Assembly: GCA_965198115.1 (NCBI GenBank)
Contig: OZ240241.1
Span: 6,240,001-6,304,000, forward strand
DNA from: Candidatus Latescibacterota bacterium
GTDB lineage: Bacteria; Latescibacterota; UBA2968
Direction of reading: 5' to 3'
Length of the DNA: 64,000 nt
Under the pieces are notes generated by a model that saw nothing but the letters and a program-made list of their open reading frames with translations, did not search any database and was not told the origin of the DNA. This document shows positions 4,534 to 58,558 of the stretch, one piece after another (within the stretch, counting starts at the first letter, position 1; every line of letters begins with the position of its first letter). A program made the position numbers and the translations under genes.

Positions 4534-5074
4534 TAGTGTCACGTCCCGCGTATAAGCTTCAAAAGTTTATGGACTTTCTCGAGGATTGAATCTGCCGTGG
4601 CGGTCCAGACGAAGGGTGTAGAATTCTCGTTGTAGTGATCAGTGAATTTCTTGATGCAGGCGATCAGGTCCTTGACGCTTCTGAAGGTGCCTCGTCGAAT
4701 GGCTCTTTGGGTGATGATACCGAACCAGATCTCTACCTGGTTCAGCCAGGAGGCATATGTTGGTGTGTAGTGCACGTGATATCGTTTCCGTGAGGCGAGC
4801 CAACGCTTGACGTTCGGGTGCTTGTGCGTGCCGTAATTATCGACGACCAGATGGATGTCGAGATCCTTTGGGACGTTCTTGTCGATGTGCTTGAGGAACT
4901 GAAGGAACTCTTTGTTGCGGTGTCTGGGCTTGCACTGAGTCAGAACTTTGCCGGATGCGATGTTGAGCGCTGCAAAGAGGGTGGTCGTGCCGTTCCGGAT
5001 ATAGCTGTGAGTGACGCCCTCGACGTATCCGAGACCCAAAGGAAGAATCGGTTGTGTCCGTTCGAGTGCTTGAA

Positions 5075-6448
5075 GAGTTCAGGTCAATAGGTGTGTAAAA
5101 GAAATCAGGCGGCCATCTTCCCGGCTTCGACCTGCGGTCCGGTTGAGTGTTTCTGATCGTAGACTTGTTGTAGCAAGTGTGGCGCGGTGAGTTTCCTGAA
5201 TCGGCTCTCTGCGACCTTGAGCGTACGCCAGATGAGAGTCGTGGCGTTCCTGACTTTCTTGAATCGCCTGGCGGCGTTTGTGCGAAGCCGAACGGAAGCA
5301 AAGGGGCTCTCGACGACGTTCGTGGTTCTCAGGTGTTTCCAGTGTTCCTTCGGGAAGTCGTAGAACGTGACCATCCGATCCCAGTCTCTTTCGAGCGTCT
5401 CCACGGCGGCAGGGAACTGTGAGCGATACCGTGCGGCAAAGCGTTTCCGGAGCTTCTCGGCCTCCTTTTTCGTGCCGGCATAGGGGATCTGGACGAGCAG
5501 TGCGCGGGCTTCAGCCTGTGCACGCTTGGCGACCTTGTCGAGCACGTTGAGGATCTTGTGGTTCCAGCACCGTTGTTGCCGGCTCTCTGGCCAGACCTGA
5601 TCAACGGCCGCCCAGATGCCCATATTCCCGTCCGCGGCGATCAGGACAGGATGTTCGAGCCCGCGATCCCGGAGATCCCGTAGCACCGTGAGCCAGGATT
5701 CTGTAGACTCTCGATAACCGGGTTCTATCGCCAGGATCTCCTTGCTGCCGTCGCTCATCGCGCCGATCACGACCAGCAGACACGCCTTCTCGCGCTCGAG
5801 CCCGGCTTTGACGTAGATGCCATCAGCCCAGGCGTAGACCAGTTCGCGATTATCCAGACGCCTTTCTTTCCAGTCCTGGAAGTCGACCTCCCACTTCCCT
5901 CGAAGACGAGCGATCGAGGTCGGCGAAAGCGGCGCGCCATCACCGAGCAGCGCACGCAAAGACAACTCGAAGTCGCCCTGGGAGAGACCGTGGAGATAAA
6001 GGTCGGGAAGCAGATCTCCAATGGCCCTGGTTCTCCGGGCGAACAGGGGGAGGATGCGGCTTTCAAACCGCTCTTCCAGACCACGAACCCGGGGACGCCG
6101 GACCTTGATCGTTCCGCAGCTCGTCGAGAGACGCCGGGGCTTGCCGTAGCCGTTCCTGTAGCCCCTGGAGCTATCGACCTCGGCTCGGCGCTCATACCAC
6201 GACCGGCCCAAGAACGCGGTCGCCTCCTCCTCCAGAATGGACTGGAACCGGCCCTGGATCTCTTCACGGATCCAATCGTCAACCGTCTCCCACGTCGGCA
6301 TGGACTTCAATGGGGCTCTATGCGTATGTTCCTTCACGGCGATCCTCCTTCCCAACCGGGCCTCTCACCCGGTTTTGTGTGAATCAACTATCTCACGGGA
6401 AGGGTAGGGTCGCCCTTTCTCTTTTTCCACACCTTTTGATTATAGCTC
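5075..6448 (-). mobile_element. IS256-family element nested in IS630-A
   Basis: 9-bp direct repeat GTGCTTGAA at 5066-5074 and 6449-6457; imperfect 26-bp terminal IRs. Confidence 0.95.
5105..6355 (-). CDS. IS256-family (Mutator-like) transposase
   Basis: YRNGY, WADGIY, ADG, QRCWNHK, LRTTNVVESPF. Confidence 0.95.
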   Translation of the reverse strand: MGRRIAVKEHTHRAPLKSMPTWETVDDWIREEIQGRFQSILEEEATAFLGRSWYERRAEVDSSRGYRNGYGKPRRLSTSCGTIKVRRPRVRGLEERFESRILPLFARRTRAIGDLLPDLYLHGLSQGDFELSLRALLGDGAPLSPTSIARLRGKWEVDFQDWKERRLDNRELVYAWADGIYVKAGLEREKACLLVVIGAMSDGSKEILAIEPGYRESTESWLTVLRDLRDRGLEHPVLIAADGNMGIWAAVDQVWPESRQQRCWNHKILNVLDKVAKRAQAEARALLVQIPYAGTKKEAEKLRKRFAARYRSQFPAAVETLERDWDRMVTFYDFPKEHWKHLRTTNVVESPFASVRLRTNAARRFKKVRNATTLIWRTLKVAESRFRKLTAPHLLQQVYDQKHSTGPQVEAGKMAA

Positions 6449-7083
6449 GTGCTTGAATCTGGCTCTTCTCGTCTACACAGAGCACCATCGCGTTGTCCGG
6501 TGGGTTCAGGTATAGACCGACGATATCCCTGACTTTCTCGACGAAGAAGGGATCGTTCGACAGTTTGAAGTGCTTCTGTCGATGCGGTTGCAGGCCAAAA
6601 GCTTTCCATACACGTTGAACCGAGGACTTGGAGAGCCCCGTCTCGTCGGCCATCGAACGACAGGTCCAGTGGGTGGCACCCTTCGGTTGCTTCTTGAGCG
6701 TCTTGTAGATGAGGGAGGAGATCTCTTCGTCGCTGACCGACCGTGGCCCTCCAGGACGCAATTCGTCATACAGTCCCATCAAGCCTTGCTCGCAGAAGCG
6801 ACGACGCCACTTGCCGACAGACGCTCCGGACAACCCGACTCGTTCCGCGATCTCCTGATTGGTCAGACCGCAATCGCTCATCAAGACGATCTTCGCGCGA
6901 CGCACCAAAGCGTGAGACATGCTACGCGAACGAGACAATGACTCGAGTTGATCGTGGACCTCATCACTGATGTTCAGTGGCTGTAACGGACGACCTCTAG
7001 CCATCGGTTCCTCCCAAGAATGAGTGCTTGAGGAACCATACGACAGAATCGAATATTTTTCTAGTTATTCCTGGGACGTGACA

Positions 7084-7257
7084 CTAGTGGCCTGTTACGA
7101 AAGTAGTACTGGACTTTTGCTGCCAGACTGAGAGGCGTCAGTTCGAGCGTAGTCGAGAACACGCCCATTACGAATCGCGAATAGGGACTTCTCGACTCCG
7201 CTCGAAGTGACCCTGCTCTCCCGATTTTAAAGGGCGATTAACGTGACAGCCCACTAG
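7084..7257. mobile_element. 174-bp MITE-like non-autonomous element containing an inverted REP-like pair
   Basis: Ends CTAGTGGCCTGTTACG and CGTGACAGCCCACTAG form an imperfect 16-bp IR; internal GTCAGTTCGAGCGTAGTCGAGAA and TTCTCGACTCCGCTCGAAGTGAC are inverted. Confidence 0.7.
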
Positions 7258-8425
7258 TGTCTCGTCTCAGGAATAACTAGAAAAATTCGTGATACAGTCG
7301 TAAGGTTCCTCAGGCACTCATTGTGAGGAGGAACCGATGGCAAGAGGTCGTCCGTTACAACCACTGAACATCAGTGATGAAGTCCGCGATCAACTCCAGT
7401 CGTTGTCCGGTTCGCGCAGCATGCCTCACGCTCTGGTGCGTCGGGCGAAGATCGTCCTGCTGAGCGATGGTGGTCTGACCAATCAGGAGATCGCCGAACG
7501 AGTCGGGTTGTCCGGAGCGTCCGTTGGCAAATGGCGCCGTCGCTTCTGCGAGCAAGGCTTGATGGGACTGTATGACGAGTTACGTCCTGGTGGTCCGCGG
7601 TCCGTTAGCGACGAAGAGATCTCCTCACTCATCTACAAGACGCTCAAGAAGAAGCCGAAGAGTGCCACCCACTGGACCTGTCGAGCGATGGCCGATGAGA
7701 CGGGCCTCTCAAAGTCCACAGTGCAACGTGTATGGAGAGCCTTTGGACTGCAGCCGCATCGTCAGAAGCACTTCAAGCTGTCGAACGATCCCTTCTTCGT
7801 CGAGACAGTCAGGGATATCGTCGGTTTATACCTGAACCCGCCGGACAACGCAATGGTGCTCTGCATAGACGAGAAGAGCCAGATTCAAGCACTCGAACGG
7901 ACGCAACCGATTCTCCCTTTGGGCCTCGGGTATGTCGAGGGCGTCACTCACAGCTATACACGGCACGGCACGACTACCCTCTTTGCGGCGCTCAACATCG
8001 CATCAGGAAAAGTCCTGACTCAGTGCAAGCCCAGACATCGCAACAGAGAGTTCCTTCAGTTCCTCAAGCACATTGACAAAAACGTCCCGAAGGATCTCGA
8101 CATCCATCTGGTCGCCGATAACTACGGCACTCACAAGCACCAGAACGTCAAACGTTGGCTCACCTCACGTAAAAGATACCACGTGCACTACACACCAACG
8201 TATGCCTCCTGGCTAAACCAGGTAGAGATCTGGTTCGGCATCATCACACAAAGAGCAATCCGACGAGGAACCTTTCGGAACGTCAAGGATCTGATCACCT
8301 GCATCCAGAAGTTCACAGACCAATACAATCAGAACTCAAAGCCTTTCGTGTGGACGGCAACCGCTGACTCGATCCTCGACAAACTCAACAGACTTCTAAA
8401 ACTTATTCGCGGGACACGACACTAG
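7254..8425 (+). mobile_element. IS630-family element B, intact
   Basis: Ends CTAGTGTCTCGTC and GGGACACGACACTAG; close paralog of element A. Confidence 0.95.
7337..8425 (+). CDS. IS630-family transposase, 362 aa
   Basis: HTH region plus DDE motifs; the stop TAG lies in the CTAG target site. Confidence 0.95.
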   Translation: MARGRPLQPLNISDEVRDQLQSLSGSRSMPHALVRRAKIVLLSDGGLTNQEIAERVGLSGASVGKWRRRFCEQGLMGLYDELRPGGPRSVSDEEISSLIYKTLKKKPKSATHWTCRAMADETGLSKSTVQRVWRAFGLQPHRQKHFKLSNDPFFVETVRDIVGLYLNPPDNAMVLCIDEKSQIQALERTQPILPLGLGYVEGVTHSYTRHGTTTLFAALNIASGKVLTQCKPRHRNREFLQFLKHIDKNVPKDLDIHLVADNYGTHKHQNVKRWLTSRKRYHVHYTPTYASWLNQVEIWFGIITQRAIRRGTFRNVKDLITCIQKFTDQYNQNSKPFVWTATADSILDKLNRLLKLIRGTRH

Positions 8426-8653
8426 GAAGGATTGACTAATTACGTTGTCGCAGAGCCGGAGATGGGCCGTGCCGTGCCCTTTGGTGACGGGTTCATCGAC
8501 TATGACGCGTTCTTCACGGGGCTGAAAGAGGGTGGGTTCGAGGGCATCGCGACGTTCGAGATGTGTTCTCAACTCCGTGGTGGAGGGGACCTCGAGAACC
8601 TCGATTTTTGTGCGAAAAGATACCTGACGTGGATGGATGAGAGAGGGTTTTGA
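8426..8653 (+). pseudogene. 3' part of the sugar phosphate isomerase begun at 3877
   Basis: AVPFGDGFIDY..FFTGLKEGGFEG..TFEMC is the TIM-barrel C-terminus. Confidence 0.85.
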
Positions 8654-8749
8654 GAAGAACGGATGCATTGACCAGTGACAAAAGACGGCGGTGATGGCCT
8701 TGGCAAACTCTTCGTCTGAGATGAACGGGACCTGGTTTGACTGGCCTTA

Positions 8750-10011
8750 GTACTCCTGTTCTCAAATACGGTGACGTATTCTAAGCAGACTTTGCCAAGG
8801 GCGTATCGTAGAACCTGAGTTTGTCGATCATCTCCGCGAGATCTGTTCGTGTGAACTTCCATTTGAAGGGTGTGGCGATACGTCCGTAGCGTTCCTGAAA
8901 ACCGAGGATTCTTGCCTCAAGCTCTTCGAGCGATGCAAATTCGATAGGTGTCAGAGCCTTGCGTTTGAGGATCGAGAAGTAGATCTCGATCTGATTGAGC
9001 CAGCTTGCGTGGATCGGAAGGTGAACGGGGTGGATGTTTGGCCACTTCCCCTGGATACGGTCGATGCATGTTTGCCCTCGGTGCGAGGAGCCATTATCCA
9101 CGATGAGGTAGACTTTCTTTGCCGAGCAATAGGGTTTCCGGCTCATGATCAGGCTCAGGAGCCGGTTGAAGGGCTCGATACCCGAAGAAGACTCACAGAG
9201 ACCGAAGATTCGACCATTGTGCACGTCGAGAGCAGCCAGATAGGCCAGGGCTCCTTTCCGCTCGTATTCGTGTTTCAACGCGTGCCGCTCTGTTCGAGGC
9301 TGGCGGTAGGGTAACGTGCTTGCGAGCTCGTGCTTGAATACTGGTCTTTTCGTCGGCAGAAAGTACATATTCCCTCGGCCCTAAAGGCTTTCCTTGCCAT
9401 TGGCGGTGATACAGATCAAGGACTCTACCTGCTTTGGTTTGGAAGTCCGGGTCCCGTGGGAAAATCCAGGAGCGATGATACCAAGGACGAATCGCGTCCT
9501 CGTTCAACCAGCGCCAGACAGTGGCGCCGCTGATCTTGGCAACGAAGCCCCTTTGCACTGCCTCGGCGGCAATCTCGGAACAGCTGAACCGCGAGAGCGG
9601 TATCCCGCTCTCGCTCGGTAGTTCACACGCCAGCGCCTTGATCTGAACGACCACCTGAGGGGGGAAAACCGGGCGGGCGCCCGGGACGAGATCTATCTTC
9701 GAGTCCCGAAAGACGCTCTTCGAAAAAGCGCTTACGCCATTTGCTTACGATCGGACGAGGGACATCCAACCGTTGGGCGATAATCTTGTTGGATAATCCC
9801 TCGGCGGCGAGAAGCACGATTTTCGATCGGATCACTTGATAATACGGTAACGTATATTGTCCAGCCATTCGCTCGAGGTCGACCCGTTCCTTCTCAGACA
9901 GTAGCACCACATAAGGCGAACGTCTTGGCATTGTTCTCCTCCTTTTGAAGGAGAACATAAGCTACAAATAATGTTCAGGACATACGTAATAATATTTATG
10001 AAACCATGTAC
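8750..10011 (-). mobile_element. IS630-family element C (two-ORF type; transposase 9931-8781)
   Basis: GTAC termini flanked by TTA on both sides; HTH ORF then DEKTSIQA, DNGSSH and SWLNQIEIYF; slippery TTTTCCCCC near 9660; extra frameshift near 9275. Confidence 0.9.
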
Positions 10012-22692: not shown

Positions 22693-24112
22693 GGCTCTAT
22701 CCGGGTTTCTCAACGGTGAAACTATAGAATGACAAGGTCATAGATCGTTCCCTACGCTTGGTTGTGTGTGTAGGACAATCAAAGCGAAGGGGGTGCGACC
22801 TATGACCGGGAGCAGATTACTATCGAAACTGCTGAGATTCAAGGGGTTCCGTGTTGTCAGCTGGTGGTTTGAGGGGAGAAGCTGCGTCGTCATCGCCGTA
22901 AAGCCACATAAGAATGGTTGTTGTTGTCCGGAGTGCGGCCGTCGAGGTAAAATCGTCCGCACAATGCCCCATCCGCGTCGGTGGCGTGACATTCCGGTGT
23001 GCGGGTGGAGGGTCTGGCTTCTCTACCATCCTCGGGAGATTCGGTGTCCTACCCACGGTCGTGTGGTCGAGGAGATTCCGTGGGCGGAGCGGTTCTCTCG
23101 GGTGACGTATCGCTTCGAGTATGCCATGCTGCGCTACTGCCAGACCTTGACGCAGAAGGCGGCGTCCGAGTTACTGCGCATCTCTGCCTCGACGCTGTCG
23201 GATCTCCTTCACCGATCCATCACGCGGCTTCGTGAAGGTCATCGTATCCGAGGGCTCAAAACCATCGGGATCGACGAGATCTCCTACGCCAAGCGTCACA
23301 GGTACGCCACGCTCGTTTACGATCTGGACCGCTCCTGCGTGGTGTGGGTTGGCCGCGGCAGGGCGCGTAAAACGATCGATCGGTTCTTCACAGAGGCTCT
23401 CAGTCCCTACCAGAGATCCAAGATCGAGTGGGCCTGCTGCGACATGAGCGAAGCTTACATCGGAGCCATCCAGGAACACTGTCCGAATGCCAAGCTGGTC
23501 CTCGATCGCTTTCACATCGTCAAGGCTCTCAATGCCGCCGTTGACGAGGTCCGTAAGGACCAGTGGCGTAAAGCTGCCCCGGATGAGCGCAAAGCCATGA
23601 AGGGCCTCCGATGGCTCCTCTACCGGCACTCAGCGACACGCTCCAGAGGGGATACTCGGACACTCAAAGCACTGGAGAAGGCGAACTACCGAATCTATAG
23701 AGCCTGGAGACTCAAGGACGAGTTCGAGCAGTTCTGGGAATACAAAGCGCCCTGGGCTGCCGAACGCTTCCTGAAATGCTGGACGACGTCCGCACTCAGA
23801 AGTCGACTTGAACCCCTGCGAAAGTTCGTCAGGACCCTGCGACAGCACTTCTTCGGCGTCCTCGCATTCGTGAACACGCGTCTTACCAACGCCATCGCCG
23901 AAGGCCTCAACCGAATCGTCCAAATCGTCAAGAACCGAGCCAGCGGATTCCGCACACTCGACGCATTCAACGATATGATCTTCCTTACCGTCGGAGACAT
24001 AAACATCCCTGAGCAGATTCCGAAGAGGTTCCGCACACGCTAACCGCGCCCCCATGCCAGGAACCACGGCACCTTCACCCACTTCATCTCGTTGAGAGAT
24101 CCGGATATAGCC
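22693..24112 (+). mobile_element. ISL3-family element, copy 1 (transposase 22766-24043)
   Basis: IRs GGCTCTATCCGGGTTTCTCAACG and CGTTGAGAGATCCGGATATAGCC; CPEC zinc finger, GIDE, DRFH, TNAIAEGLN. Confidence 0.95.
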
Positions 24113-24119
24113 AAAAAAA

Positions 24120-25536
24120 GGCTCTATCCGGGTTTCTCAACGGTGAAACTATAGAATGACAAGGTCATAGATCGTTCCCTACGCTTGGTTGTGTGTGTAG
24201 GACAATCAAAGCGAAGGGGGTGCGACCTATGACCGGGAGCAGATTACTATCGAAACTGCTGAGATTCAAGGGGTTCCGTGTTGTCAGCTGGTGGTTTGAG
24301 GGGAGAAGCTGCTTCGTCATCGCCGTAAAGCCACATAAGAATGGTTGTTGTTGTCCGGAGTGCGGCCGTCGAGGTAAAATCGTCCGCACAATGCCCCATC
24401 CGCGTCGGTGGCGTGACATTCCGGTGTGCGGGTGGAGGGTCTGGCTTCTCTACCATCCTCGGGAGATTCGGTGTCCTACCCACGGTCGTGTGGTCGAGGA
24501 GATTCCGTGGGCGGAGCGGTTCTCTCGGGTGACGTATCGCTTCGAGTATGCCATGCTGCGCTACTGCCAGACCATGACGCAGAAGGCGGCGTCCGAGTTG
24601 CTGCGCATCTCTGCCTCGACGCTGTCGGATCTCCTTCACCGATCCATCACGCGGCTTCGTGAAGGTCATCGTATCCGAGGGCTCAAAACCATCGGGATCG
24701 ACGAGATCTCCTACGCCAAGCGTCACAGGTACGCCACGCTCGTTTACGATCTGGACCGCTCCTGCGTGGTGTGGGTTGGCCGCGGCAGGGCGCGTAAAAC
24801 GATCGATCGGTTCTTCACAGAGGCTCTCAGTCCCTACCGGAGATCCAAGATCGAGTGGGCCTGCTGCGACATGAGCGAAGCTTACATCGGAGCCATCCAG
24901 GAACACTGTCCGAATGCCAAGCTGGTCCTCGATCGCTACATCGTCAAGGCTCTCAATGCCGCCGTTGACGAGGTCCGTAAGGACCAGTGGCGTAAAGCTG
25001 CCCCGGATGAGCGCAAAGCCATGAAGGGCCTCCGATGGCTCCTCTACCGGCACTCAGCGACACGCTCCAGAGGGGATACTCGGACACTCAAAGCACTGGA
25101 GAAGGCGAACTACCGAATCTATAGAGCCTGGAGACTCAAGGACGAGTTCGAGCAGTTCTGGGAATACAAAGCGCCCTGGGCTGCCGAACGCTTCCTGAAA
25201 TGCTGGACGACGTCCGCACTCAGAAGTCGACGTGAACCCCTGCGAAAGTTCGTCAGGACCCTGCGACAGCACTTCTTCGGCGTCCTCGCATTCGTGAACA
25301 CGCGTCTTACCAACGCCATCGCCGAAGGCCTCAACCGAATCGTCCAAATCGTCAAGAACCGAGCCAGCGGATTCCGCACACTCGACGCATTCAACGATAT
25401 GATCTTCCTTACCGTCGGAGACCTAAACATCCCTGAGCAGATTCCGAAGAGGTTCCGCACACGCTAACCGCGCCCCCATGCCAGGAACCACGGCACCTTC
25501 ACCCACTTCAGCTCGTTGAGAGATCCGGATATAGCC
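24120..25536 (+). mobile_element. ISL3-family element, copy 2, tandem to copy 1 (transposase 24193-25467)
   Basis: Same IRs; separated from copy 1 by A7; DRFH motif changed to DRY. Confidence 0.93.
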
Positions 25537-25593: not shown

Positions 25594-25899
25594 CTACATT
25601 TCCCCCATTTCCTTCCGAATCTCATCGTTACGCTGGGTAATCTGGCCGACCTGCATTTCAAGCGTTTCGATCTCGGTTCGCTGTCGGTCGAGTTCGCGTT
25701 CCGACATTTGCATCTGCACGAGCAGGGGCTGTCGTTCGGTCTGTATCTGTTTGATGAGCCCCCTGATCCGTTTGATTTCGGTGTCCGCTTCGGCCCTGCG
25801 TTGACGAGCCCGGTTCAGGTCCCAGTTCGTGAAGCCCTTGGCCGCGATCACCAGAAGGCCGAGGACGATTACGAACCATTCGAAGGATCCTAAGACCAC
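25594..25899 (-). CDS. Small membrane-anchored coiled-coil protein
   Basis: N-terminal hydrophobic helix then heptad-like E/Q/R-rich region; RBS GAGGA. Confidence 0.7.
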   Translation of the reverse strand: MVLGSFEWFVIVLGLLVIAAKGFTNWDLNRARQRRAEADTEIKRIRGLIKQIQTERQPLLVQMQMSERELDRQRTEIETLEMQVGQITQRNDEIRKEMGEM

Positions 25900-25901
25900 A
25901 T

Positions 25902-26237
25902 CTACTTCCTCGAGTCCTGGTTGGCCTGATCGATCTTCTTGCCCTGCTTCTGGATCAGCAAGTTCTCCTGCACTTTGTTCGCACCCTCGATGTTGCTCTT
26001 CAGGCTCGGAATCTTCCCCTTGTTGGACTGCAGCTCTTCCTTCTAGGTGGCCGCCCTCGCCACATCTTCCACCTTCTGCGTGTTTTCCTCCTCCAACTCC
26101 AACTCCAGACTTGCCGCCGTGGTTTCGAGCTCCTCTGCTTCTCCGACGATGATATCCAGGATCTGCTTATACCGTTTCATCGTGAAGTAGGTGTAAGATA
26201 GTCCAAGGATGGCGATGGTGAGGATCAGCCAGAGCAT
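25902..26237 (-). CDS. Small membrane-anchored coiled-coil protein with in-frame TAG at 26043-26045
   Basis: MLWLILTIAILG TM helix; the frame stays open 46 codons past the TAG, ending next to the following gene. Confidence 0.6.
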
Positions 26238-26386
26238 TTACGGAGATCCGGAGAAGGTGGTTACAGAGTGGTGACGCGGGAATATAGGGGCTCGGCGGAA
26301 CCTATGAAAGAGCGGGGAGCTCTTCGGCACGGCCTATGCCTACTCGCGAGGCGAGCAGGTGTGGCAACAGTGTGAAAAATGAGATG

Positions 26387-26417
26387 TTGACAAGCAACCC
26401 TAATAATCACATATAGT
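26387..26417 (+). promoter_or_regulatory. Putative sigma70 promoter of the fliM cluster
   Basis: TTGACA at 26387 and CATATAGT at 26410-26417. Confidence 0.45.
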
Positions 26418-26452
26418 TGGCCGAATCTTCACCGTTCAAGAGTGAGGTGTCT

Positions 26453-27442
26453 ATGGCGAAGAAGATGACTCAGAAGGAAATCGACGACAGGCTGGCGGCC
26501 GGCGAGAAGCCGAAGCGCGCCAAGAAGTCCAAGAAATCGAAGAAACCGGTGATCACCTACGACTTCAAGCACCCGAACCGCGTGTCGAAAGACCAAAGGC
26601 GAACGCTGGAGAACTTGCATACGAACCTCGCCCGGATGATTTCATCGTCGCTGTCGACGATGACGCAGTCGGTGGTAGACTGTGATATCGCGTTCGTCGA
26701 TCAGACGACGTATGCCGAAGTCATTATGTCGATGACGAACCCATCGCTTTCCTACACGTTCACGATCGAACCCCTCGGGGGTCCCGCCTTCCTGGATTTT
26801 GCTCCGGACGTGGCCTACGGCCTGATTGACTGCGAATTCGGGGGAACGGGTGAGGTCACGCCGCCGAACAGACCCGTCACGGCCATCGAACGGACGGTGA
26901 TGACACGTGTGGTCACGCGCACGTTGGCCGATTTTGAGGCGACCTGGCTGCCGCTGTTGAAGGTCCAGGTGTCGGATGCGGAGCTTGAGACGAATCCGGA
27001 GTTCATGCAGATCGCGGCTCCGTCGGACACGGTGGTTCTGATCGCGTTCGAAGTCAATGCGAAGAACTTTTCCGGTCTGGTGTACGTCTGTTATCCCTAT
27101 TTCACGCTTGAACCCGTGACGCCTTACCTGAATGTGCAGACCTGGGCATCGAGACTCGGCCGAAGATCGGAACCTCAAGAGGCTAGGCTCAACCAGCTTG
27201 GTCAGATCCCTACCGAAATCCGTGTGATCGCGGGACGCGGAGAGGTTCCGGCTGAAGATATCGCCAATGCAAAGGTCGGCGACACCATTGTGCTGAGTAC
27301 ACGAGCTGATGACCTCGCGGTACTTTTTGTAGAGGATGAACCCCTGTTCAGAGTTCACACCGGTATGGATGAAAAGAAACACCGCTACTCGGTAGAGGTG
27401 GAGCAGGCCATCCCGATCGAAGAAAGGATCCATTATGTCTGA
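26453..27442 (+). CDS. fliM: Flagellar switch protein FliM paralog
   Basis: YDFKHPNRVSKDQ, VDQTTY, FGGTG, ETNPEFMQI, C-terminal SPOA-like domain. Confidence 0.9.
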   Translation: MAKKMTQKEIDDRLAAGEKPKRAKKSKKSKKPVITYDFKHPNRVSKDQRRTLENLHTNLARMISSSLSTMTQSVVDCDIAFVDQTTYAEVIMSMTNPSLSYTFTIEPLGGPAFLDFAPDVAYGLIDCEFGGTGEVTPPNRPVTAIERTVMTRVVTRTLADFEATWLPLLKVQVSDAELETNPEFMQIAAPSDTVVLIAFEVNAKNFSGLVYVCYPYFTLEPVTPYLNVQTWASRLGRRSEPQEARLNQLGQIPTEIRVIAGRGEVPAEDIANAKVGDTIVLSTRADDLAVLFVEDEPLFRVHTGMDEKKHRYSVEVEQAIPIEERIHYV

Positions 27443-27734
27443 GAATGAGACCACCGCCCACGAGGACACTGCCTGGCCTAGAGACATGATGTCTCGTGTC
27501 GGTCGGCTGGGACGAGCGACGATGGAAGTGGTTGTAGAGCTGGGACGAGCACGCATCCCGTTGGAGGACGTGCTCAATGCGGAACCTGGCAGCATCTTCG
27601 AGACGGACAAGCTGTCTGGTATGCCGATGGAGATTTTTGTCAATGACGTGCTTTTCGCCCGGGGAGAGACTGTGGTCGTCGGGGATCAGCTTGCGGTGCG
27701 TGTGACCGATCTGGTGAAGAACGAAAACCGGTAG
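27435..27734 (+). CDS. fliN: FliN/SPOA-domain protein
   Basis: VELGRARI, PMEIFVN..FARGETVVVG..AVRVT. Confidence 0.88.
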   Translation: MSENETTAHEDTAWPRDMMSRVGRLGRATMEVVVELGRARIPLEDVLNAEPGSIFETDKLSGMPMEIFVNDVLFARGETVVVGDQLAVRVTDLVKNENR

Positions 27735-27851
27735 AGCTGGAACACCCTTCGACTACGCTCAGGGCAGGCTCCAGCGCGGAGACACTAAAGAAAACTGCAC
27801 ACCAGGTGGTCTTTCTCGAATCGTGGTGCGAACAAGCAACGGAGATTCACA

Positions 27852-29561
27852 TTGGCCGATCGGTTGATTCATTCTGTTGGCGTGACGGAAACGGGGGCAT
27901 CCCCTTCGGCGTGGAAACCACCGACGCTGAAGCCAAAGCCGATGCCGGAACGATTAGCGCTCACCCTGTCCGTGGAGGCCGAGAAGAGCGACGGAGAACC
28001 CACACCCAGACCCGAAGAGCCCGGTATGGTGTTCATTGAAGCGGGGAGATTCGTGATCGGGGATGATGAGGGCGGGCGCGATGCCCAGCCGCAGCACCGT
28101 GTGATGCTGGACGGTTACTGGATCGATCGTCTGCCTGTGACGAACGCCGATTACATGACCTTCGTGGAGGCAACAGACTATCGTCGCCCGGCGCATTGGG
28201 TCACTGGCACGTTTCCGGCAGAAAACGGGAAACCATCCGGTGACGAACGTGAATCGCACCGATGCGATGGCTTTCGCTCGCTGGGCAGGAAAAAGACTGC
28301 CGACGGAAGCGGAATGGGAGAAGGCATCCCGGGGAACGATCGGGCAGACCTATCCCTGGGGGAACGCCTTCCGAAAGGACAACTGCAATAGTCACAATAA
28401 CTTCGACGGCGAGACGACACCGGCCGATCAGTTCCCCAACGGTGCGAGTCCATTCGGTGTATTGGATACGTGCGGGAATGTGATGGAGTGGTGTTCGGAC
28501 TACTACGACGAAGGCTACTATGCTGTCGCACCTCACGACAACCCGGAGGGCCCGAAAGGGCGGTATCGCTCGATTCGGGGTGGGTTCTATTCCGGAAACA
28601 AGGCGGACGTGCGATGCGCGGCGCGCCATTGGGCGCCGGAGGAAACTCTGCAGGATCACATCGGGTTTCGATGTGCGAAGACACCGGGTCAACAGCCGGA
28701 GGCACCGGCCGTAGCTGAAGCGACCTCATCGAGTGAGGGACACAAGGTGGAACCGATTTCGGACGAGCAATCCCTGGAAACGATCGCCGAGGGTCATCCC
28801 GAGTCCGTGGCGAAAGTGGTTCGGGCGAAGCTGAACGAGCCGGGGGACAGGAAGGAACCGCAGATCAGTTGGGTGCGTTGATGATTACGTTGGGACGTGA
28901 TCTCGCGGCCGGTGTGATGAAGTACCTGACGACGGATGAGATCGGGATCCTGGCAGTCGCGATGTCGGTGCGAGCCGTCGTGACAGGGGATGAACGCCAG
29001 TCGATCCAGCAGGATGTGAAGGAGCGCATTCTGGCGGGCACGCATCTGGACTACGGCGGGGTCGATTTCACGCACGAGGTGCTGGAGCGGGCCCTCGGGC
29101 CGCATCGCGCTCGCCGGTTGATGGATCAGGCGGTCGTGGCGGATGCAAGAATGATCCGGGTCCTGGATACCGCCTCACCCGAGCAGATTTTGCCTTTCTT
29201 CATGAAAGAGCAACCCCAGACGATTGCGTTGATCGTTTCACAGATCGATCCTACGAAGGCGAGCGCGATTCTGGCTCTGATGCCGGAAGAAAGACGGCGC
29301 GAAGTGGTGACTCGTATGGCCAACCTCGGGACGGTCCGAGTGAATACGCTACGAGCGCTCGAGGATTCCCTGGCTGACGAACTACAAGCGATGTTGACGG
29401 GGAACGTTGAGGTCGGGGGCGCTGAGACCGTAGCGGTTATCCTCGCGCACACGGATGAGACTGTGCGTCAAGACCTTCTGGCTGCGTTCAGGGCGTCGGA
29501 TGGCGAAATGGCGGATCAGATCGAGCAGGCGGCTGCAAACGGAGGAGCGACCGATGGCTGA
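27852..29561 (+). CDS. Probable fusion: FGE-sulfatase (SUMF1) fold + FliF-C-like helix + FliG N/M domains (frameshifts near 28228 and 28865)
   Basis: RLPTEAEWEKA, YPWG, GNVMEW, RGG, GFRC; then GGVDFTHEVLERALG, EQPQTIALIVS, VGGAETVAVIL. Confidence 0.75.
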
Positions 29562-29799
29562 AGCGAGAGCGAACGGTGAAGCCACCAAACCAGCGGTGGA
29601 AATAGCCATCGAATTGGGCAGAACGAGGCTTTCCATCGATCAGCTGCTGAGATTGACCGAAGGCTCGATGATCGAGTTGGGTGTTCGGTCGGGCGAGCCG
29701 GCGATGGTGACGATCGAGCGGGAGGTCTTTGCCGAAGGGGAGGTTGTTGCGTCAGGGGAGCATTTCGGGGTGAGGATTACGAAGGTGGTGAATGCGTAG
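29554..29799 (+). CDS. fliN: Second, minimal FliN/SPOA protein
   Basis: IELGRTRLSI..GSMIEL..GEP..AEGEVV..FGVRIT; RBS GGAGG. Confidence 0.88.
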   Translation: MAEARANGEATKPAVEIAIELGRTRLSIDQLLRLTEGSMIELGVRSGEPAMVTIEREVFAEGEVVASGEHFGVRITKVVNA

Positions 29800-29908
29800 A
29801 GCCGGAGGACAGTGGACAGAAGACAGGCTATCGTGTTCGCCCGCCACAGGTTAGTCGCAGATCTTTAGTCTGCGTCCCTCGAGCGGGCAAACCTGGAGGA
29901 GAGGCAAC

Positions 29909-31626
29909 GTGGCTGAAGATAAATCGGCCGGTGATCGGCTTTCAGCGGATCGAGTACACATTCTGGAGAATCTGCACTCGAATCTGGCGCGGATGCTGGC
30001 GTCGTCGTTTTCGACGATGCAGCGGTCAGTGGTGGACTGCGACATCAAGTTTGTCGATCAGACGACTTACGGGGAGTTTATTGCCTCCCTTTCCAATCCA
30101 TCGTGCTCTTACACCTTTACGATCAATCCTCTCGGGGGAACGGCTATTCTGGATTTCGCCCTGCCGGTGGCGTATGCGTTCATCGACCGTCATTACGGGG
30201 GAGCGGGTAGCAACCCCCCATCGCACGCTCGTCCGCTGACTCGTTTGGAGCGGACCGTCACCAACAAGGTGTTGCGGAATTCGCTCGCGGATCTGGAGAT
30301 GACCTGGGAAGCGTTGCTCAAGATTCGGGTGAGTGATGCGGAACTGGAGACGAATCCAGAATTCATGCAGGTAGCCGATCCGGCTGCGACCGTCCTTCTG
30401 ATTGCGTTTGAAGTCCACTCTCAGCACGCCTCGGGCCTTGTACAACTATGCTATCCATTCGATACGCTTGCGCCGGCGATGAAGTATTTGACGCTCGGCA
30501 ATGCGCCATCGTCACACCGCGAGACTTCGGCTTCGACGGACTTTGAAACAGAATCGACTGCGAACGCACCGGTCATTCCAACGGAGGCATCCATTGAACA
30601 GATCGCGGCCGATCGGCCCGGCATCATAGCGGGGGTCGTGGAAGCGCTTCTTGCGCGTACCGACAACGGATCTGAGGATGCTAAAGCGCCGTGGAAGGCA
30701 GCCGTGTTGATAGCGTGTCTGCCGAGGAACGATTCTAAAAGGGTGATCCGACAATGTTCGAGTGAGGCGACGGAGAAACTCGAGAAAGCCGTAGAGGAGC
30801 TTCAAGCGGTAACCGCCGCGGATCGAGATGAGGTCTTTGGGAACGCAAAAGAACGTCTGGCGAGCGGCGACTACATCATTCCAGGGGCCGCGGAATCAGC
30901 GCAGCTCGCGATGCGAGAAACGAACGCAAGGTCCAGCGGGTTTTGGATGCTTCGCAACGTGGATCCTGCCCAGATCGTCCCATTCATTGTCAAAGAGCAT
31001 CCACAGACGATCGCGCTGATCCTTTCGCAGGTGGACGCCTCTCAGTCGGCTGGGGTGCTGAACGGCCTGCCTGGTCCCCTTCAGGCGGACGTTTCGTTTA
31101 GAATAGCACAGATGGAAACCATATCGCCCCAGACACTTCGGGAGTTGGAAGATGATTTAGCAAGCGATCTCCAGTCGATTCTCTCGGGTCAGATTACGGA
31201 GATCGGCGGGCCCAAGGCCGTGGCGGCAATCCTCAATCGGACGGGGCGATCGACGGAGAAGGATGTGCTCGAGCGGCTTGATAAGCAGGATCCCGAGCTT
31301 GCTGAGGATGTGCGCAATCAAATGTTCGTCTTCGACGACATCGCGAAGCTGACGGATCGGGAGATCCAGGTTATTCTGAGGAAGTGGATTCCAAAGAACT
31401 GGCTGTCTCTCTGAAGGGCGCCAGCGAGGAACTGAAAGAGCGCGTCTTCGCCAACCTCAGCGATGAGGTGGGTGCGAAGATTAAGGAAGAGATGGAATTC
31501 TCCGGGCCAATCAGGATGAGCGATTTGGAGGAAGTGCAGTTGCGGATCGTGCAAACGGTGAGGCAGTTGGAAAAGGATGGTCATCTGAAGATCGTGCGGG
31601 GCGATTCGAACGATCGGTTTGTCTGA
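29909..31626 (+). CDS. FliM middle domain::FliG fusion protein (frameshift near 31380)
   Basis: One open frame contains FliM motifs (VDQTTY, YGGAG, ETNPEFMQ) and FliG motifs (KAAVLI, EHPQTIALILS, GGPKAVA, MFVFDDI); 31384-31626 supplies FliG-C. Confidence 0.9.
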
Positions 31627-31779
31627 AGAACCGAGCAGGCGAGCCCTTCAGTACGTCCGATTCGCGGACTACTCAGGACAGGCAGGAGAGCGGGCGTGGC
31701 CATTGGCTGCGCCCATACTTTTTTCAAGAACCGGCTGCTCATTTCAGATTCCCCCTCAACATCTTGCGAGGATCCCGCT

Positions 31780-46451: not shown

Positions 46452-48984
46452 ATGCGGACCGACCGCACAACAGCGCTGCCGCCGTTCTTCACTCAGGTCA
46501 TCGGCTCGCTGCCGCGGCCACGGGTGGTGCGCGACCTGATCGATCGGCGTGAGGCCATTCCGGCGACAGAGTATCGGCGGCTGATGGACGAGATGGTGAT
46601 TTTTGCCATTCGGTTGCAGGAACAGGCTGGCCTCGATGTCATCAGCGACGGGGAATGGCGGCGGGTGCACTACCTCGATGAATTCCTGCTGCGGGTAGGT
46701 GGCCACGAGAAGGTTCGATCGTTCGAGCACCAGGGTGAAAAAAGGGCTATATCCGGATCTCTCAACGAGATGAAGTGGGTGAAGGTGCCGTGGTTCCTGG
46801 CATGGGGGCGCGGTTAGAGTGTGCGGAACCTCTTCGGAATCTGCTCAGGGATGTTTATGTCTCCGACGGTAAGGAAGATCATATCGTTGAATGCGTCGAG
46901 TGTGCGGAATCCGCTGGCTCGGTTCTTGACGATTTGGACGATTCGGTTGAGGCCTTCGGCGATGGCGTTGGTAAGACGCGTGTTCACGAATGCGAGGACG
47001 CCGAAGAAGTGCTGTCGCAGGGTCCTGACGAACTTTCGCAGGGGTTCAAGTCGACTTCTGAGTGCGGACGTCGTCCAGCATTTCAGGAAGCGTTCGGCAG
47101 CCCAGGGCGCTTTGTATTCCCAGAACTGCTCGAACTCGTCCTTGAGTCTCCAGGCTCTATAGATTCGGTAGTTCGCCTTCTCCAGTGCTTTGAGTGTCCG
47201 AGTATCCCCTCTGGAGCGTGTCGCTGAGTGCCGGTAGAGGAGCCATCGGAGGCCCTTCATGGCTTTGCGCTCATCCGGGGCAGCTTTACGCCACTGGTCC
47301 TTACGGACCTCGTCAACGGCGGCATTGAGAGCCTTGACGATGTGAAAGCGATCGAGGACCAGCTTGGCATTCGGACAGTGTTCCTGGATGGCTCCGATGT
47401 AAGCTTCGCTCATGTCGCAGCAGGCCCACTCGATCTTGGATCTCCGGTAGGGACTGAGAGCCTCTGTGAAGAACCGATCGATCGTTTTACGCGCCCTGCC
47501 GCGGCCAACCCACACCACGCAGGAGCGGTCCAGATCGTAAACGAGCGTGGCGTACCTGTGACGCTTGGCGTAGGAGATCTCGTCGATCCCGATGGTTTTG
47601 AGCCCTCGGATACGATGACCTTCACGAAGCCGCGTGATGGATCGGTGAAGGAGATCCGACAGCGTCGAGGCAGAGATGCGCAGTAACTCGGACGCCGCCT
47701 TCTGCGTCATGGTCTGGCAGTAGCGCAGCATGGCATACTCGAAGCGATACGTCACCCGAGAGAACCGCTCCGCCCACGGAATCTCCTCGACCACACGACC
47801 GTGGGTAGGACACCGAATCTCCCGAGGATGGTAGAGAAGCCAGACCCTCCACCCGCACACCGGAATGTCACGCCACCGACGCGGATGGGGCATTGTGCGG
47901 ACGATTTTACCTCGACGGCCGCACTCCGGACAACAACAACCATTCTTATGTGGCTTTACGGCGATGACGAAACAGCTTCTCCCCTCAAACCACCAGCTGA
48001 CAACACGGAACCCCTTGAATCTCAGCAGTTTCGATAGTAATCTGCTCCCGGTCATAGGTCGCACCCCCTTCGCTTTGATTGTCCTACACACACAACCAAG
48101 CGTAGGGAACGATCTATGACCTTGTCATTCTATAGTTTCACCGTTGAGAAACCCGGATAGAGCCAAAAAAAGGTTACGACGGTTGTCACCGGCCGTATGC
48201 AGGGTGGGGCTCCGCTCTTCGTCGAGGAGGGGAATTCCTCGTCGAGCACACGAAGCGCTGCACCAAATACGCTTTGCCGGCCCCGTTTCTGCTTGCGATC
48301 CGTAAATGGGACGAGGAATACAGCAGCGACGCCTACCCGACGATGGAACACTACATCGAGCACGTCACGGAGCTGCTGGCAGCGGAGGCGACGGCGCTGG
48401 CTCAGACCGGCGTCGACATCATTCAACTCGACGATCCGGCGCTGACCTATCTATGCGATCGTCGATTGATGGGTGGGGAGGAAACTCACGACGATCGTCC
48501 TCGGCGCGAATGGGACATCGAGCGTCAGGTGCCGATGGCCCTTGACGCGGTCAATCAGATCGCTGCTGAGCTGCGGGTCGAGGTGCACCTGCATTGCTGT
48601 CACAGTGTTTACAAGAGGCAGAGCGACGTGACCGGCGATTACAAACCGATCATGCCCTTCCTGAAGGATGCACGGATCGACCGTGTCAACCTGGAGTTCG
48701 CGTATCACGGCACCGGCGAGGCCAGTGACCTGGCGTTGCTCCCGGATGGGATCGACGTCGGTATGGGTGTTGTGGATGTGCGTACGGAACAGATTCAGGC
48801 GGTCGAGGATATTGAGGAAATCGGCGCGGCCGGTGCTGCGATTGTCGAGCCAGCCCGGATCGCATTGAACCCCGACTGTGGGTTTGCGCCGGATTACGGT
48901 GAACCGCCGAGTATCGACGAGGCATACGAAAAGCTTTGTCGCCTAACGGAGGCGGCCGGGCGTCTTCGGCAACGTTTTGCCTGA
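46452..48984 (+). pseudogene. Cobalamin-independent methionine synthase II family gene interrupted by ISL3
   Basis: IGSLPRP and QEQAGLDVISDGE before the IS; IQLDDP, HLHCC and NPDCG after it. Confidence 0.88.
46745..48164 (-). mobile_element. ISL3-family element, copy 3 (transposase 48091-46814)
   Basis: Same IRs as copies 1 and 2; flanked by A6G and A7G. Confidence 0.95.
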
Positions 48985-58273: not shown

Positions 58274-58558
58274 ATGCCATTGGCCGGCATTTTGGATGGA
58301 CAACCGATCTTGAATCGGGGCGCGCAGGATGCGCGTCGACTGGCGCTGGACGGACATATGAACTCGAGCGTGAGGGGGCAGCCACTTCCACCGAGGGTGG
58401 ACGAGCCTACCGAGACACGAGCAGAGAAACTGAAGCGGGTGCGGGAGCAAGTCAGAGAGGGCTATTACGCCAACCGGGATGTTCTGAGAGATGTCGCTGA
58501 CGCGCTGATTATGAATCCCGCCCCTTTCGAAGCCCTGAACGAAAAAGAGGAAGAATAG
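58274..58558 (+). CDS. FlgM-like anti-sigma-28 factor
   Basis: RBS GAGGAGG; RAEKLKRVREQVREGYY..DVADAL resembles the FlgM C-terminal motif; GCCGAT upstream. Confidence 0.6.
   Translation: MPLAGILDGQPILNRGAQDARRLALDGHMNSSVRGQPLPPRVDEPTETRAEKLKRVREQVREGYYANRDVLRDVADALIMNPAPFEALNEKEEE

Follow-up and report, generated by a model that had tools for sequence, protein, structure and literature searches.

Operons of flagellar switch paralogues in Latescibacterota: FliG chains with an in-chain FliF-tail-like peptide and an apparently changed job

Background

The closest described relative of the system reported here is the flagellar motor's C-ring, in which, according to the accessible part of PMC11087270, the C-terminal segment of FliF (FliF_C) wraps around the first FliG domain, and FliM and FliN occur at a ratio of 1:3. 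We analysed a window of 64,000 nucleotides from a Latescibacterota genome (contig OZ240241.1, positions 6,240,001 to 6,304,000; the genome is named G000 below), which carries a cluster of five switch-protein genes at positions 26453..31626. This cluster and its relatives resemble the C-ring in their domains and folds, in the retained EHPQ and GGxG motifs and in having several FliN per FliM. In contrast to the C-ring, FliG carries here a peptide resembling the FliF tail, is without R281 or the whole FliG_C domain, is fused to a domain with the fold of formylglycine-generating enzyme (FGE), to FliM, to a kinase or to PP2C, and is encoded apart from ordinary solo fliG and fliM genes. Engineered FliF-FliG fusions of Salmonella and Vibrio (PDB 8z4d) likewise join the FliF C-terminus to FliG_N; in contrast to these, the fusions described below are natural, and their FliF portion is limited to the final ~30 residues, without membrane segments and ring-building domains.

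Control of the motor via contacts with FliG, FliM or MotA is known from the brakes YcgR, EpsE and MotI, and switch-type proteins located off the membrane are known from the cytosolic sorting-platform complexes of type III secretion systems. The operons considered here consist of FliG and FliM paralogues, whereas the proteins just named are either unrelated or homologues of SctQ. Borrelia possesses an additional FliG, FliG1, without which flagella are still synthesised; it is, however, a single gene, and neither a FliM/FliN kit nor fused signalling domains are mentioned in the accessible part of PMC7225975. A full-text literature search, which left most subscription journals and supplements (such as gene lists of metagenome-assembled genomes) uncovered, returned no description of these operons. 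They apparently represent a version of the flagellar switch not described before, and there are clear signs that its job has changed.

Results

Organisation and conservation of the operon

Pfam assigned the five genes, which lie on the same (forward) strand, as fliM, fliN, FGE::FliG, fliN and FliM::FliG, in agreement with the order, strand and domains of the original prediction. The fliM paralogue (26453..27442) is an unbroken open reading frame (ORF) of 329 residues (PF02154, 1.5e-47; PF01052, 5e-10) with a degenerate N-terminal peptide of the CheY-binding type, a FliM_M domain containing GGTG, and a SPOA domain. It is followed by the first fliN paralogue (27435..27734, unbroken, 99 residues; PF01052, 1.4e-21). 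The third gene (27852..29561; PF03781, PF14842, PF14841) encodes an FGE-fold domain, a mimic of the FliF tail and FliG_N-FliG_M; FliG_C is absent, as in a conserved subtype of 573-587 residues (P0027-P0031). After the second fliN paralogue (29554..29799, unbroken, 81 residues; PF01052, 7e-18), the cluster ends with a FliM_M domain, a FliF-tail mimic and FliG_N-M-C (29909..31626; PF02154, PF14842, PF14841, PF01706), where the FliM portion is without N-terminal peptide and SPOA domain. The FliG_N/M/C, FliM_M and SPOA domains of the C-ring switch were all found by Pfam, PDB and fold searches, and the AlphaFold model of P0048, an intact FliM::FliG orthologue, matched FliM_M with a TM value of 0.92 and also FliG structures. 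The FliG-FliM interface motifs are indeed kept: EQPQ, EHPQ and, in FliM::FliG, GGAG were read in the window in addition to the GGTG of fliM, and EHPQ or EQPQ is present in nearly all of 117 FliG alignment rows.

The switch-paralogue operon is real and conserved in Latescibacterota under purifying selection. Searches for proteins combining FliG with FGE or FliM gave at least 32 clusters of FGE::FliG among 120 listed 90% clusters, comprising a full-length type and the FliG_C-less type of the window, and at least 11 further ones of FliM::FliG among the 120 listed in a separate search. Within the phylum, 168 genomes were scanned, with seven candidates scored per genome and 44 further matches unlisted; at least 7 of them have FGE::FliG, in one case truncated by a contig end. 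Intact, in-frame fusions are present in many independent assemblies of three to four families; in three other assemblies, the FGE::FliG and FliM::FliG types share the length of their longest contig, which suggests the same operon. In G082, the operon consists of ECF (extracytoplasmic function) sigma, zf-HC2 anti-sigma, REC::FliM, fliM, fliN, FGE::FliG, fliN and fliN; in G012, of sigma, REC-REC::FliM, fliN, extended FliG, fliM, fliN, FGE::FliG and fliN. Similar operons exist in G006, G009, G081 and G084; these, G012, G082, G094, G105 and others possess the full kit with several fliN genes, and an ECF sigma/zf-HC2 anti-sigma pair lies 5' of many related clusters. FliM matches, which are not to be equated with copy numbers, were counted in 52 genomes of the class, 41 of which gave two or more; outside the class, all 17 genomes with a match gave a single one.

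The dN/dS values (NG86) of the window genes versus L126, a relative's cluster used for comparison, were 0.05-0.19 (fliM 0.06-0.09; fliN paralogue 1 0.05), and those within genus g6 were 0.11-0.20; the underlying dS was 0.8-2.0, with one pair saturated. The operon copy in L126 is also broken, at places other than those of the window. A pattern scan of metagenomes gave 11 matches, one of them a cluster (L126); the others are different FGE genes, for the most part a paralogue that stands alone and is anchored in the membrane. A search for related loci with alignment A1, which settled on a generic FGE motif and covered 1 of 64 parts, gave unrelated FGE genes only.

A FliF-tail peptide within the FliG chain

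According to profile comparisons, the linker ahead of FliG_N is homologous to the C-terminal peptide of FliF that binds FliG. A profile of 29 FliF tails matched P0013 at 7e-13, and the linker was the best segment in most fusions, usually with a weak match. HHalign aligned the FGE::FliG linker, with P0013 omitted, to the FliF tails at P=95% (top of 91 sliding windows) and the FliM::FliG linker at P=63% (top of 90); the two linkers matched each other at 98.6%. Profile A3, which comprises linker and FliG_N, aligned unprompted across the Vibrio FliF C-terminus of the engineered fusion 8z4d. By eye, the motif was located directly ahead of FliG_N in 21 of 22 cluster FliGs, and in the AlphaFold model of P0048 a disordered spacer is followed by two helices at 229-249 (pLDDT about 80). 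In the window, the mimic lies at 28753..28839 in FGE::FliG (helix-Pro-helix; HHalign) and at 30575..30661 in FliM::FliG (HHalign; profile A3 versus 8z4d). The in-chain peptide would occupy the FliF site of FliG_N.

Loss of the torque arginine and phylogeny of FliG

FliG R281 pairs with MotA E98 for torque, as stated in the accessible part of PMC6079164. The MotA of the lineage keeps R90 and E98. Among sequences with a C domain, this arginine is kept in all 35 solo FliGs and in none of 26 FGE::FliG (22 E, 2 S, 2 Q), in 2/9 FliM::FliG and in 1/10 other tail-bearing FliGs. A second set gave 150/153 for plain FliG, 8/29 for tail-bearing FliG, 3/11 for FliM::tail::FliG and 6/57 for FliM::FliG_MC; the rows are related and some near-duplicate, so that the counts do not represent independent events. 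The window FliM::FliG has a glutamate codon at 31465..31467, in the ORF at 31384, in the column of E. coli FliG R281 (torque helix) by alignment to E. coli FliG.

An alternative working rotor with a different stator is a very improbable explanation of the operon. It would be in line with the two motB genes of G001 and G030, with the MotA-like::FliG_C protein that heads the G120 cluster, with K264, the acidic pair and R297, which are mostly kept, and with the finding in the accessible part of PMC6079164 that a neutral change at this arginine had little effect in Vibrio and left the speed ratio unchanged. On the other hand, the in-chain FliF tail would block the usual link to the MS-ring, one subtype is without FliG_C, and no charge-reversed MotA was seen among those examined.

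In a FastTree phylogeny of FliG_N+M (92 rows after removal of short and near-identical sequences), the paralogues of family f4 grouped with the f4 solo FliG (0.97), those of f1-f3 with theirs (0.96), and the FliG_C-less type of the window formed a clade at 1.00. As paralogues group with the solo FliG of their own family, the design arose more than once or was homogenised.

The FGE domain and other fusion partners

The FGE domain of FGE::FliG matches human FGE with E about 1e-35 and has the FGE-sulfatase fold. Unlike formylglycine-generating enzyme, it lacks both catalytic cysteines of the GGSYMCHRSYCY loop, which are also missing in all 23 rows of alignment A1; throughout the family, its pocket region shows conservation instead of diversification. 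With neither catalytic cysteine in the aligned segment, an active enzyme was rejected. The fusion partner of FGE is FliG in families f1-f3 and FliN in f4, and because of the latter fusion we count FGE as part of the module. The nearest relative of the fused domain is a stand-alone FGE with a hydrophobic N-terminus (L149:7710-9060; G000:C1 about 8084000), which is followed by a GroES/Cpn10-like gene and is syntenic in several relatives.

Signalling domains are fused to switch domains in several relatives. Pfam confirmed FliG_N-M::HisKA-HATPase-REC in G105 and G097, FGE::FliG::SpoIIE/PP2C (P0019), ECF sigma::FliG_C (G005) and REC::FliM; an ECF sigma::FliM in G030 matched weakly. In REC::FliM, the receiver is directly followed by an LSQxEID-type FliM peptide, which we take to bind CheY. 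The hybrid histidine kinase of G105 (L203:2621-9677) and G097 (L207:14013-18823), fused to FliG_N-M, belongs to an operon with fliM and fliN(s); in G105, there is in addition a FliN::FGE and, upstream, a REC-sigma54 activator. A 924-residue FliM::FliN::FliG (L158:5423-8197, G157), likewise confirmed by Pfam, constitutes a near-complete single-chain ring protomer and keeps R281. The members of a large second set of Treponema-type FliM::FliG fusions (P0255-P0401 series, about 600 residues) are mostly without FliG_N and R281; their FliG parts are 74-77% identical to Treponema FliG (as shown for P0257), and some have the tail motif.

FliG_C is joined to the membrane-free cytoplasmic part of MotA in L144:14551-15216, L030:8187-8885, L023:9548-10813, L027:7573-9465 and G000:C1:806117-808213, in some cases preceded by an ECF sigma; an insertion sequence (IS) interrupts the copy of G000. 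Such a fusion is the first gene of the switch operon in G081, and a degenerate MotA::FliG_C (L211:10700-11992, G120) heads a fliN-fliN-fliG-fliM cluster. The small FliG_C::MotA-cytoplasmic proteins, their sigma-bearing versions, the sigma/anti-sigma pairs 5' of many clusters and the FliG_C-less subtype would be expected of soluble, ringless decoys that titrate FliM, FliN, CheY-P, FliH/FliI or MotA and report motor assembly to ECF sigma factors or kinases. We regard decoys as improbable, given that most FGE::FliG proteins have a full FliG_C and all polymerisation surfaces, and that the single-chain FliM::FliN::FliG resembles a ring protomer. A further FliG_C is internal to a conserved 555-residue protein with a hydrophobic segment and a C-terminal domain without Pfam family (L020:7506-9173; G000:C1:1710783-1712458, frameshifted in G000).

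Frameshifts and state of the host genome

Both fusion genes of the window are interrupted: FGE::FliG by two breaks near 28232 and 28845, which distribute it over three frames and its FGE domain over two ORFs, and FliM::FliG by one frameshift near 31381, within FliG_C, which leaves two frames. The predicted fusions hold as domain architectures, but neither is one ORF. Intact orthologues (P0030/P0237 for FGE::FliG, P0048/P0238 for FliM::FliG) span all three breaks at 62-82% identity. One read contig is identical to window positions 26000-31690, with 0 differences and 0 gaps (runs X1 and X2, which are one sample, possibly the source of the genome, and thus not independent of the assembly). None of 35 housekeeping genes is broken in G000 (fusA, initially flagged, is a single-frame full-length match). 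Because the reads carry the same letters and the housekeeping genes are unbroken, the frameshifts are probably real. An assembly chimera, which the original prediction had considered for the fusions, and a sequencing error were rejected on the basis of the read contig, the bridged deletion described below and the housekeeping genes, as well as of intact fusions in other assemblies. Since breaks in G000 also affect 8 of 56 orthologues of G001 outside the cluster (rough Poisson p about 0.06), decay is general among accessory genes, and a decay particular to the cluster was not demonstrated relative to these.

Four IS types are present in G000, in 236, 139, 41 and 33 copies (about 450 altogether). 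It retains fliE/F/H/I (at 4.51 Mb), flgB/C/F/G/H/I/K, fliA, fliD and nine flagellin-domain matches, and several of the retained flagellar genes are frameshifted; searches of the genome gave no match to flhA, fliP/Q/R, motA/B, flgE or cheA/W/R. Relative to G001 of the same genus, a single deletion at C1:4520151 (L213:3652) fuses fliK to flhF, with loss of flgD, flgE, motA, two motB, fliN, fliO/P/Q/R and flhB/A; the junction is spanned by read contigs, one of 20 kb. Elsewhere in G000 are three ordinary-type solo fliG genes, one solo fliM and a second paralogue cluster (C1:6603787-6608339, L214, 6.60 Mb) of frameshifted ECF sigma, anti-sigma, N-extended FliM, fliN, tail-bearing FliG and fliN, which corresponds to the first half of the G012 operon. 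As ordinary solo fliG and fliM are located elsewhere, the window cluster is extra to them; its genes are not the only switch genes of the genome, and the description as stand-alone is correct within the window, but not for the genome. In G001 (L017/L018) and G030 (L028/L029), the main flagellar cluster is without fliG and fliM, and the ordinary copies are solitary elsewhere.

The window copy is probably a decaying relic, non-functional in G000. Three frameshifts, the IS load, deleted or broken flagellar genes and the likewise broken L126 would be expected if the cluster were an artefact, or neutral debris left by the decay of flagellar genes, and this account applies to the window copy. It does not apply to the system, for which its probability is close to nil: intact fusions in independent assemblies of three to four families, homologous intact clusters and dN/dS values of 0.05-0.20 refute it at the lineage level, including the expectation of a dN/dS near 1.

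Link to flagella and chemotaxis

Judged by gene content, the carriers are flagellated and retain ordinary fliG and fliM. No carrier without flagellar genes was demonstrated; the system was met only in genomes having them. G161, an assembly of 170 contigs that is 92% complete, encodes flagellins as well as switch clusters and gave no FliF, FlhA or FliP match; it is the sole hint of a module retained without basal body, and a draft gap may be the cause. An MCPsignal match above the cut-off was obtained in 7/7 FGE::FliG genomes, two of them weak, and with chemoreceptor matches in all seven, a substitute for the chemotaxis pathway was rejected. The notion that the lineage has no stator, based on 0/31 PF20560 matches above the cut-off, was rejected as well: G001 and G030 do possess motA and two motB genes, and the model is therefore insensitive here. 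FlhA is present and a CheW match absent in G001, G002, G003, G007, G010 and G030.

Surroundings of the cluster

A Pfam scan of the window genes and tblastn with E. coli proteins found no fliF, fliH/I, flhA/B, mot or che gene in the window, as predicted; the neighbours of the cluster are IS elements and metabolic genes. A candidate sigma70-like promoter was read from the sequence at 26387..26417 on the forward strand (TTGACA, 19 nt, TATAGT); its spacer is long, and both hexamers are also located 5' of fliM in L126. A sigma28 (FliA) promoter was rejected, as the best match is not conserved in L126 and its score of 9 was equalled or exceeded in 220 of 1500 random windows. Divergent from the cluster, at 25594-26240 on the reverse strand, are two small genes for membrane-anchored coiled-coil proteins, one with an in-frame stop; matching DNA also adjoins the cluster in L126. 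Tandem ISL3 copies (22766-25467) adjoin the cluster, a third ISL3 lies at 46814-48091, and nested Mutator-family and DDE_3 transposases occupy 4539-9368. A short ORF at 58397-58558, without Pfam match, resembles by eye the C-terminus of FlgM.

Discussion

Tentatively, and with slightly less than even confidence, we interpret the intact operon as encoding an accessory switch for signalling in flagellated cells that would be independent of the MS-ring and blind to the stator. The in-chain peptide would fill the FliF site of FliG_N, so that FliG could fold without the MS-ring and would not dock on it, and glutamate at R281, or loss of FliG_C, would abolish the productive contact with MotA E98. 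From the intact operon, a C-ring-like complex of FliG, FliM and FliN would thus likely be built away from the motor. The retained EHPQ and GGxG motifs, together with one or two FliM and two to four FliN genes, may provide a self-polymerising kit, perhaps with canonical subunits. Input would come from CheY-type receivers (REC::FliM, beside the FliM N-terminal peptide) and perhaps from a ligand of the non-catalytic FGE fold. The output could be a hybrid kinase, PP2C or ECF sigma fused to FliG parts, as in the relatives, most likely acting on a motility or lifestyle programme; the window's version carries no fused output. The original prediction had proposed a repurposed scaffold or a modulator of the motor; this was the right pair of hypotheses in view of the intact homologues, the FliF-tail mimic, the R281 loss and the fusions, but the local copy is frameshifted, and all genomes with the system have flagellar genes.

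Several observations speak against an accessory signalling switch. The window copy is frameshifted, resides in a genome without export gate, hook and stator, and decays together with flagellar genes. FlhA was found in 6/7 FGE::FliG genomes and FliF in the seventh (80% complete), and genera without FliF are also without FliM and FliG (g4 0/21, g7 0/15). R281 is kept in 6/8 extended FliGs without detected linker, several of which show a diverged tail by eye. Fusions with a kinase, phosphatase or sigma are found at the smaller part of the loci, and the window operon has none. FliG_M/C of the paralogues is close to the solo FliG of each family, which fits co-assembly in the motor ring. Finally, a Salmonella structure has 34 FliG on 33 FliF, according to the accessible part of PMC11087270, and this mismatch could leave room in the motor for a FliG that is self-capped.

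The last two points, the co-occurrence with flagellar genes and the co-decay in G000 would also be expected of brake or tuning paralogues that enter the true C-ring. There, a FliG that is self-capped and blind to the stator would occupy places in the ring without FliF, so that torque or bias would drop; the form lacking FliG_C would terminate the FliG chain, and fused domains would make braking conditional. The accessory FliG1 of Borrelia, which alters swimming and not flagellar synthesis (accessible part of PMC7225975), is a precedent. We nevertheless consider brakes unlikely, though worth serious attention: one subunit would suffice, yet several operons of a genome repeat a kit of 1-2 FliM, 2-4 FliN and 1-2 FliG; the fusions with kinase, PP2C and sigma are outputs rather than inputs; and a 250-residue FGE domain beside FliG_N would presumably point to the membrane side of the ring. 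It is because of the complete kit, the several FliN genes and the enzymatic outputs that we favour the signalling switch over a simple brake.

A bolder version, on which we would place only limited confidence, is that Latescibacterota rebuilt the cytoplasmic face of the motor (FliF tail, FliG, FliM, FliN and even the cytoplasmic domain of MotA) as a membrane-free ring, whose cooperative switching would be read via histidine kinases, PP2C and ECF sigma as an ultrasensitive amplifier, with a parallel invention in treponemes.

Conclusion

The C-ring has so far been known as a part of the motor that is templated by the MS-ring. A self-capped FliG and the single-chain FliM::FliG and FliM::FliN::FliG proteins make it possible to test whether a C-ring can form, and establish its symmetry, in the absence of FliF. 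They also make a second old question testable, namely whether a cooperative C-ring switch can drive an output other than rotation. If the kinase or phosphatase output tracks the state of the ring, these operons would represent a new type of bacterial signalling device; if the paralogues dope the motor, they would represent a new route of braking by paralogues.

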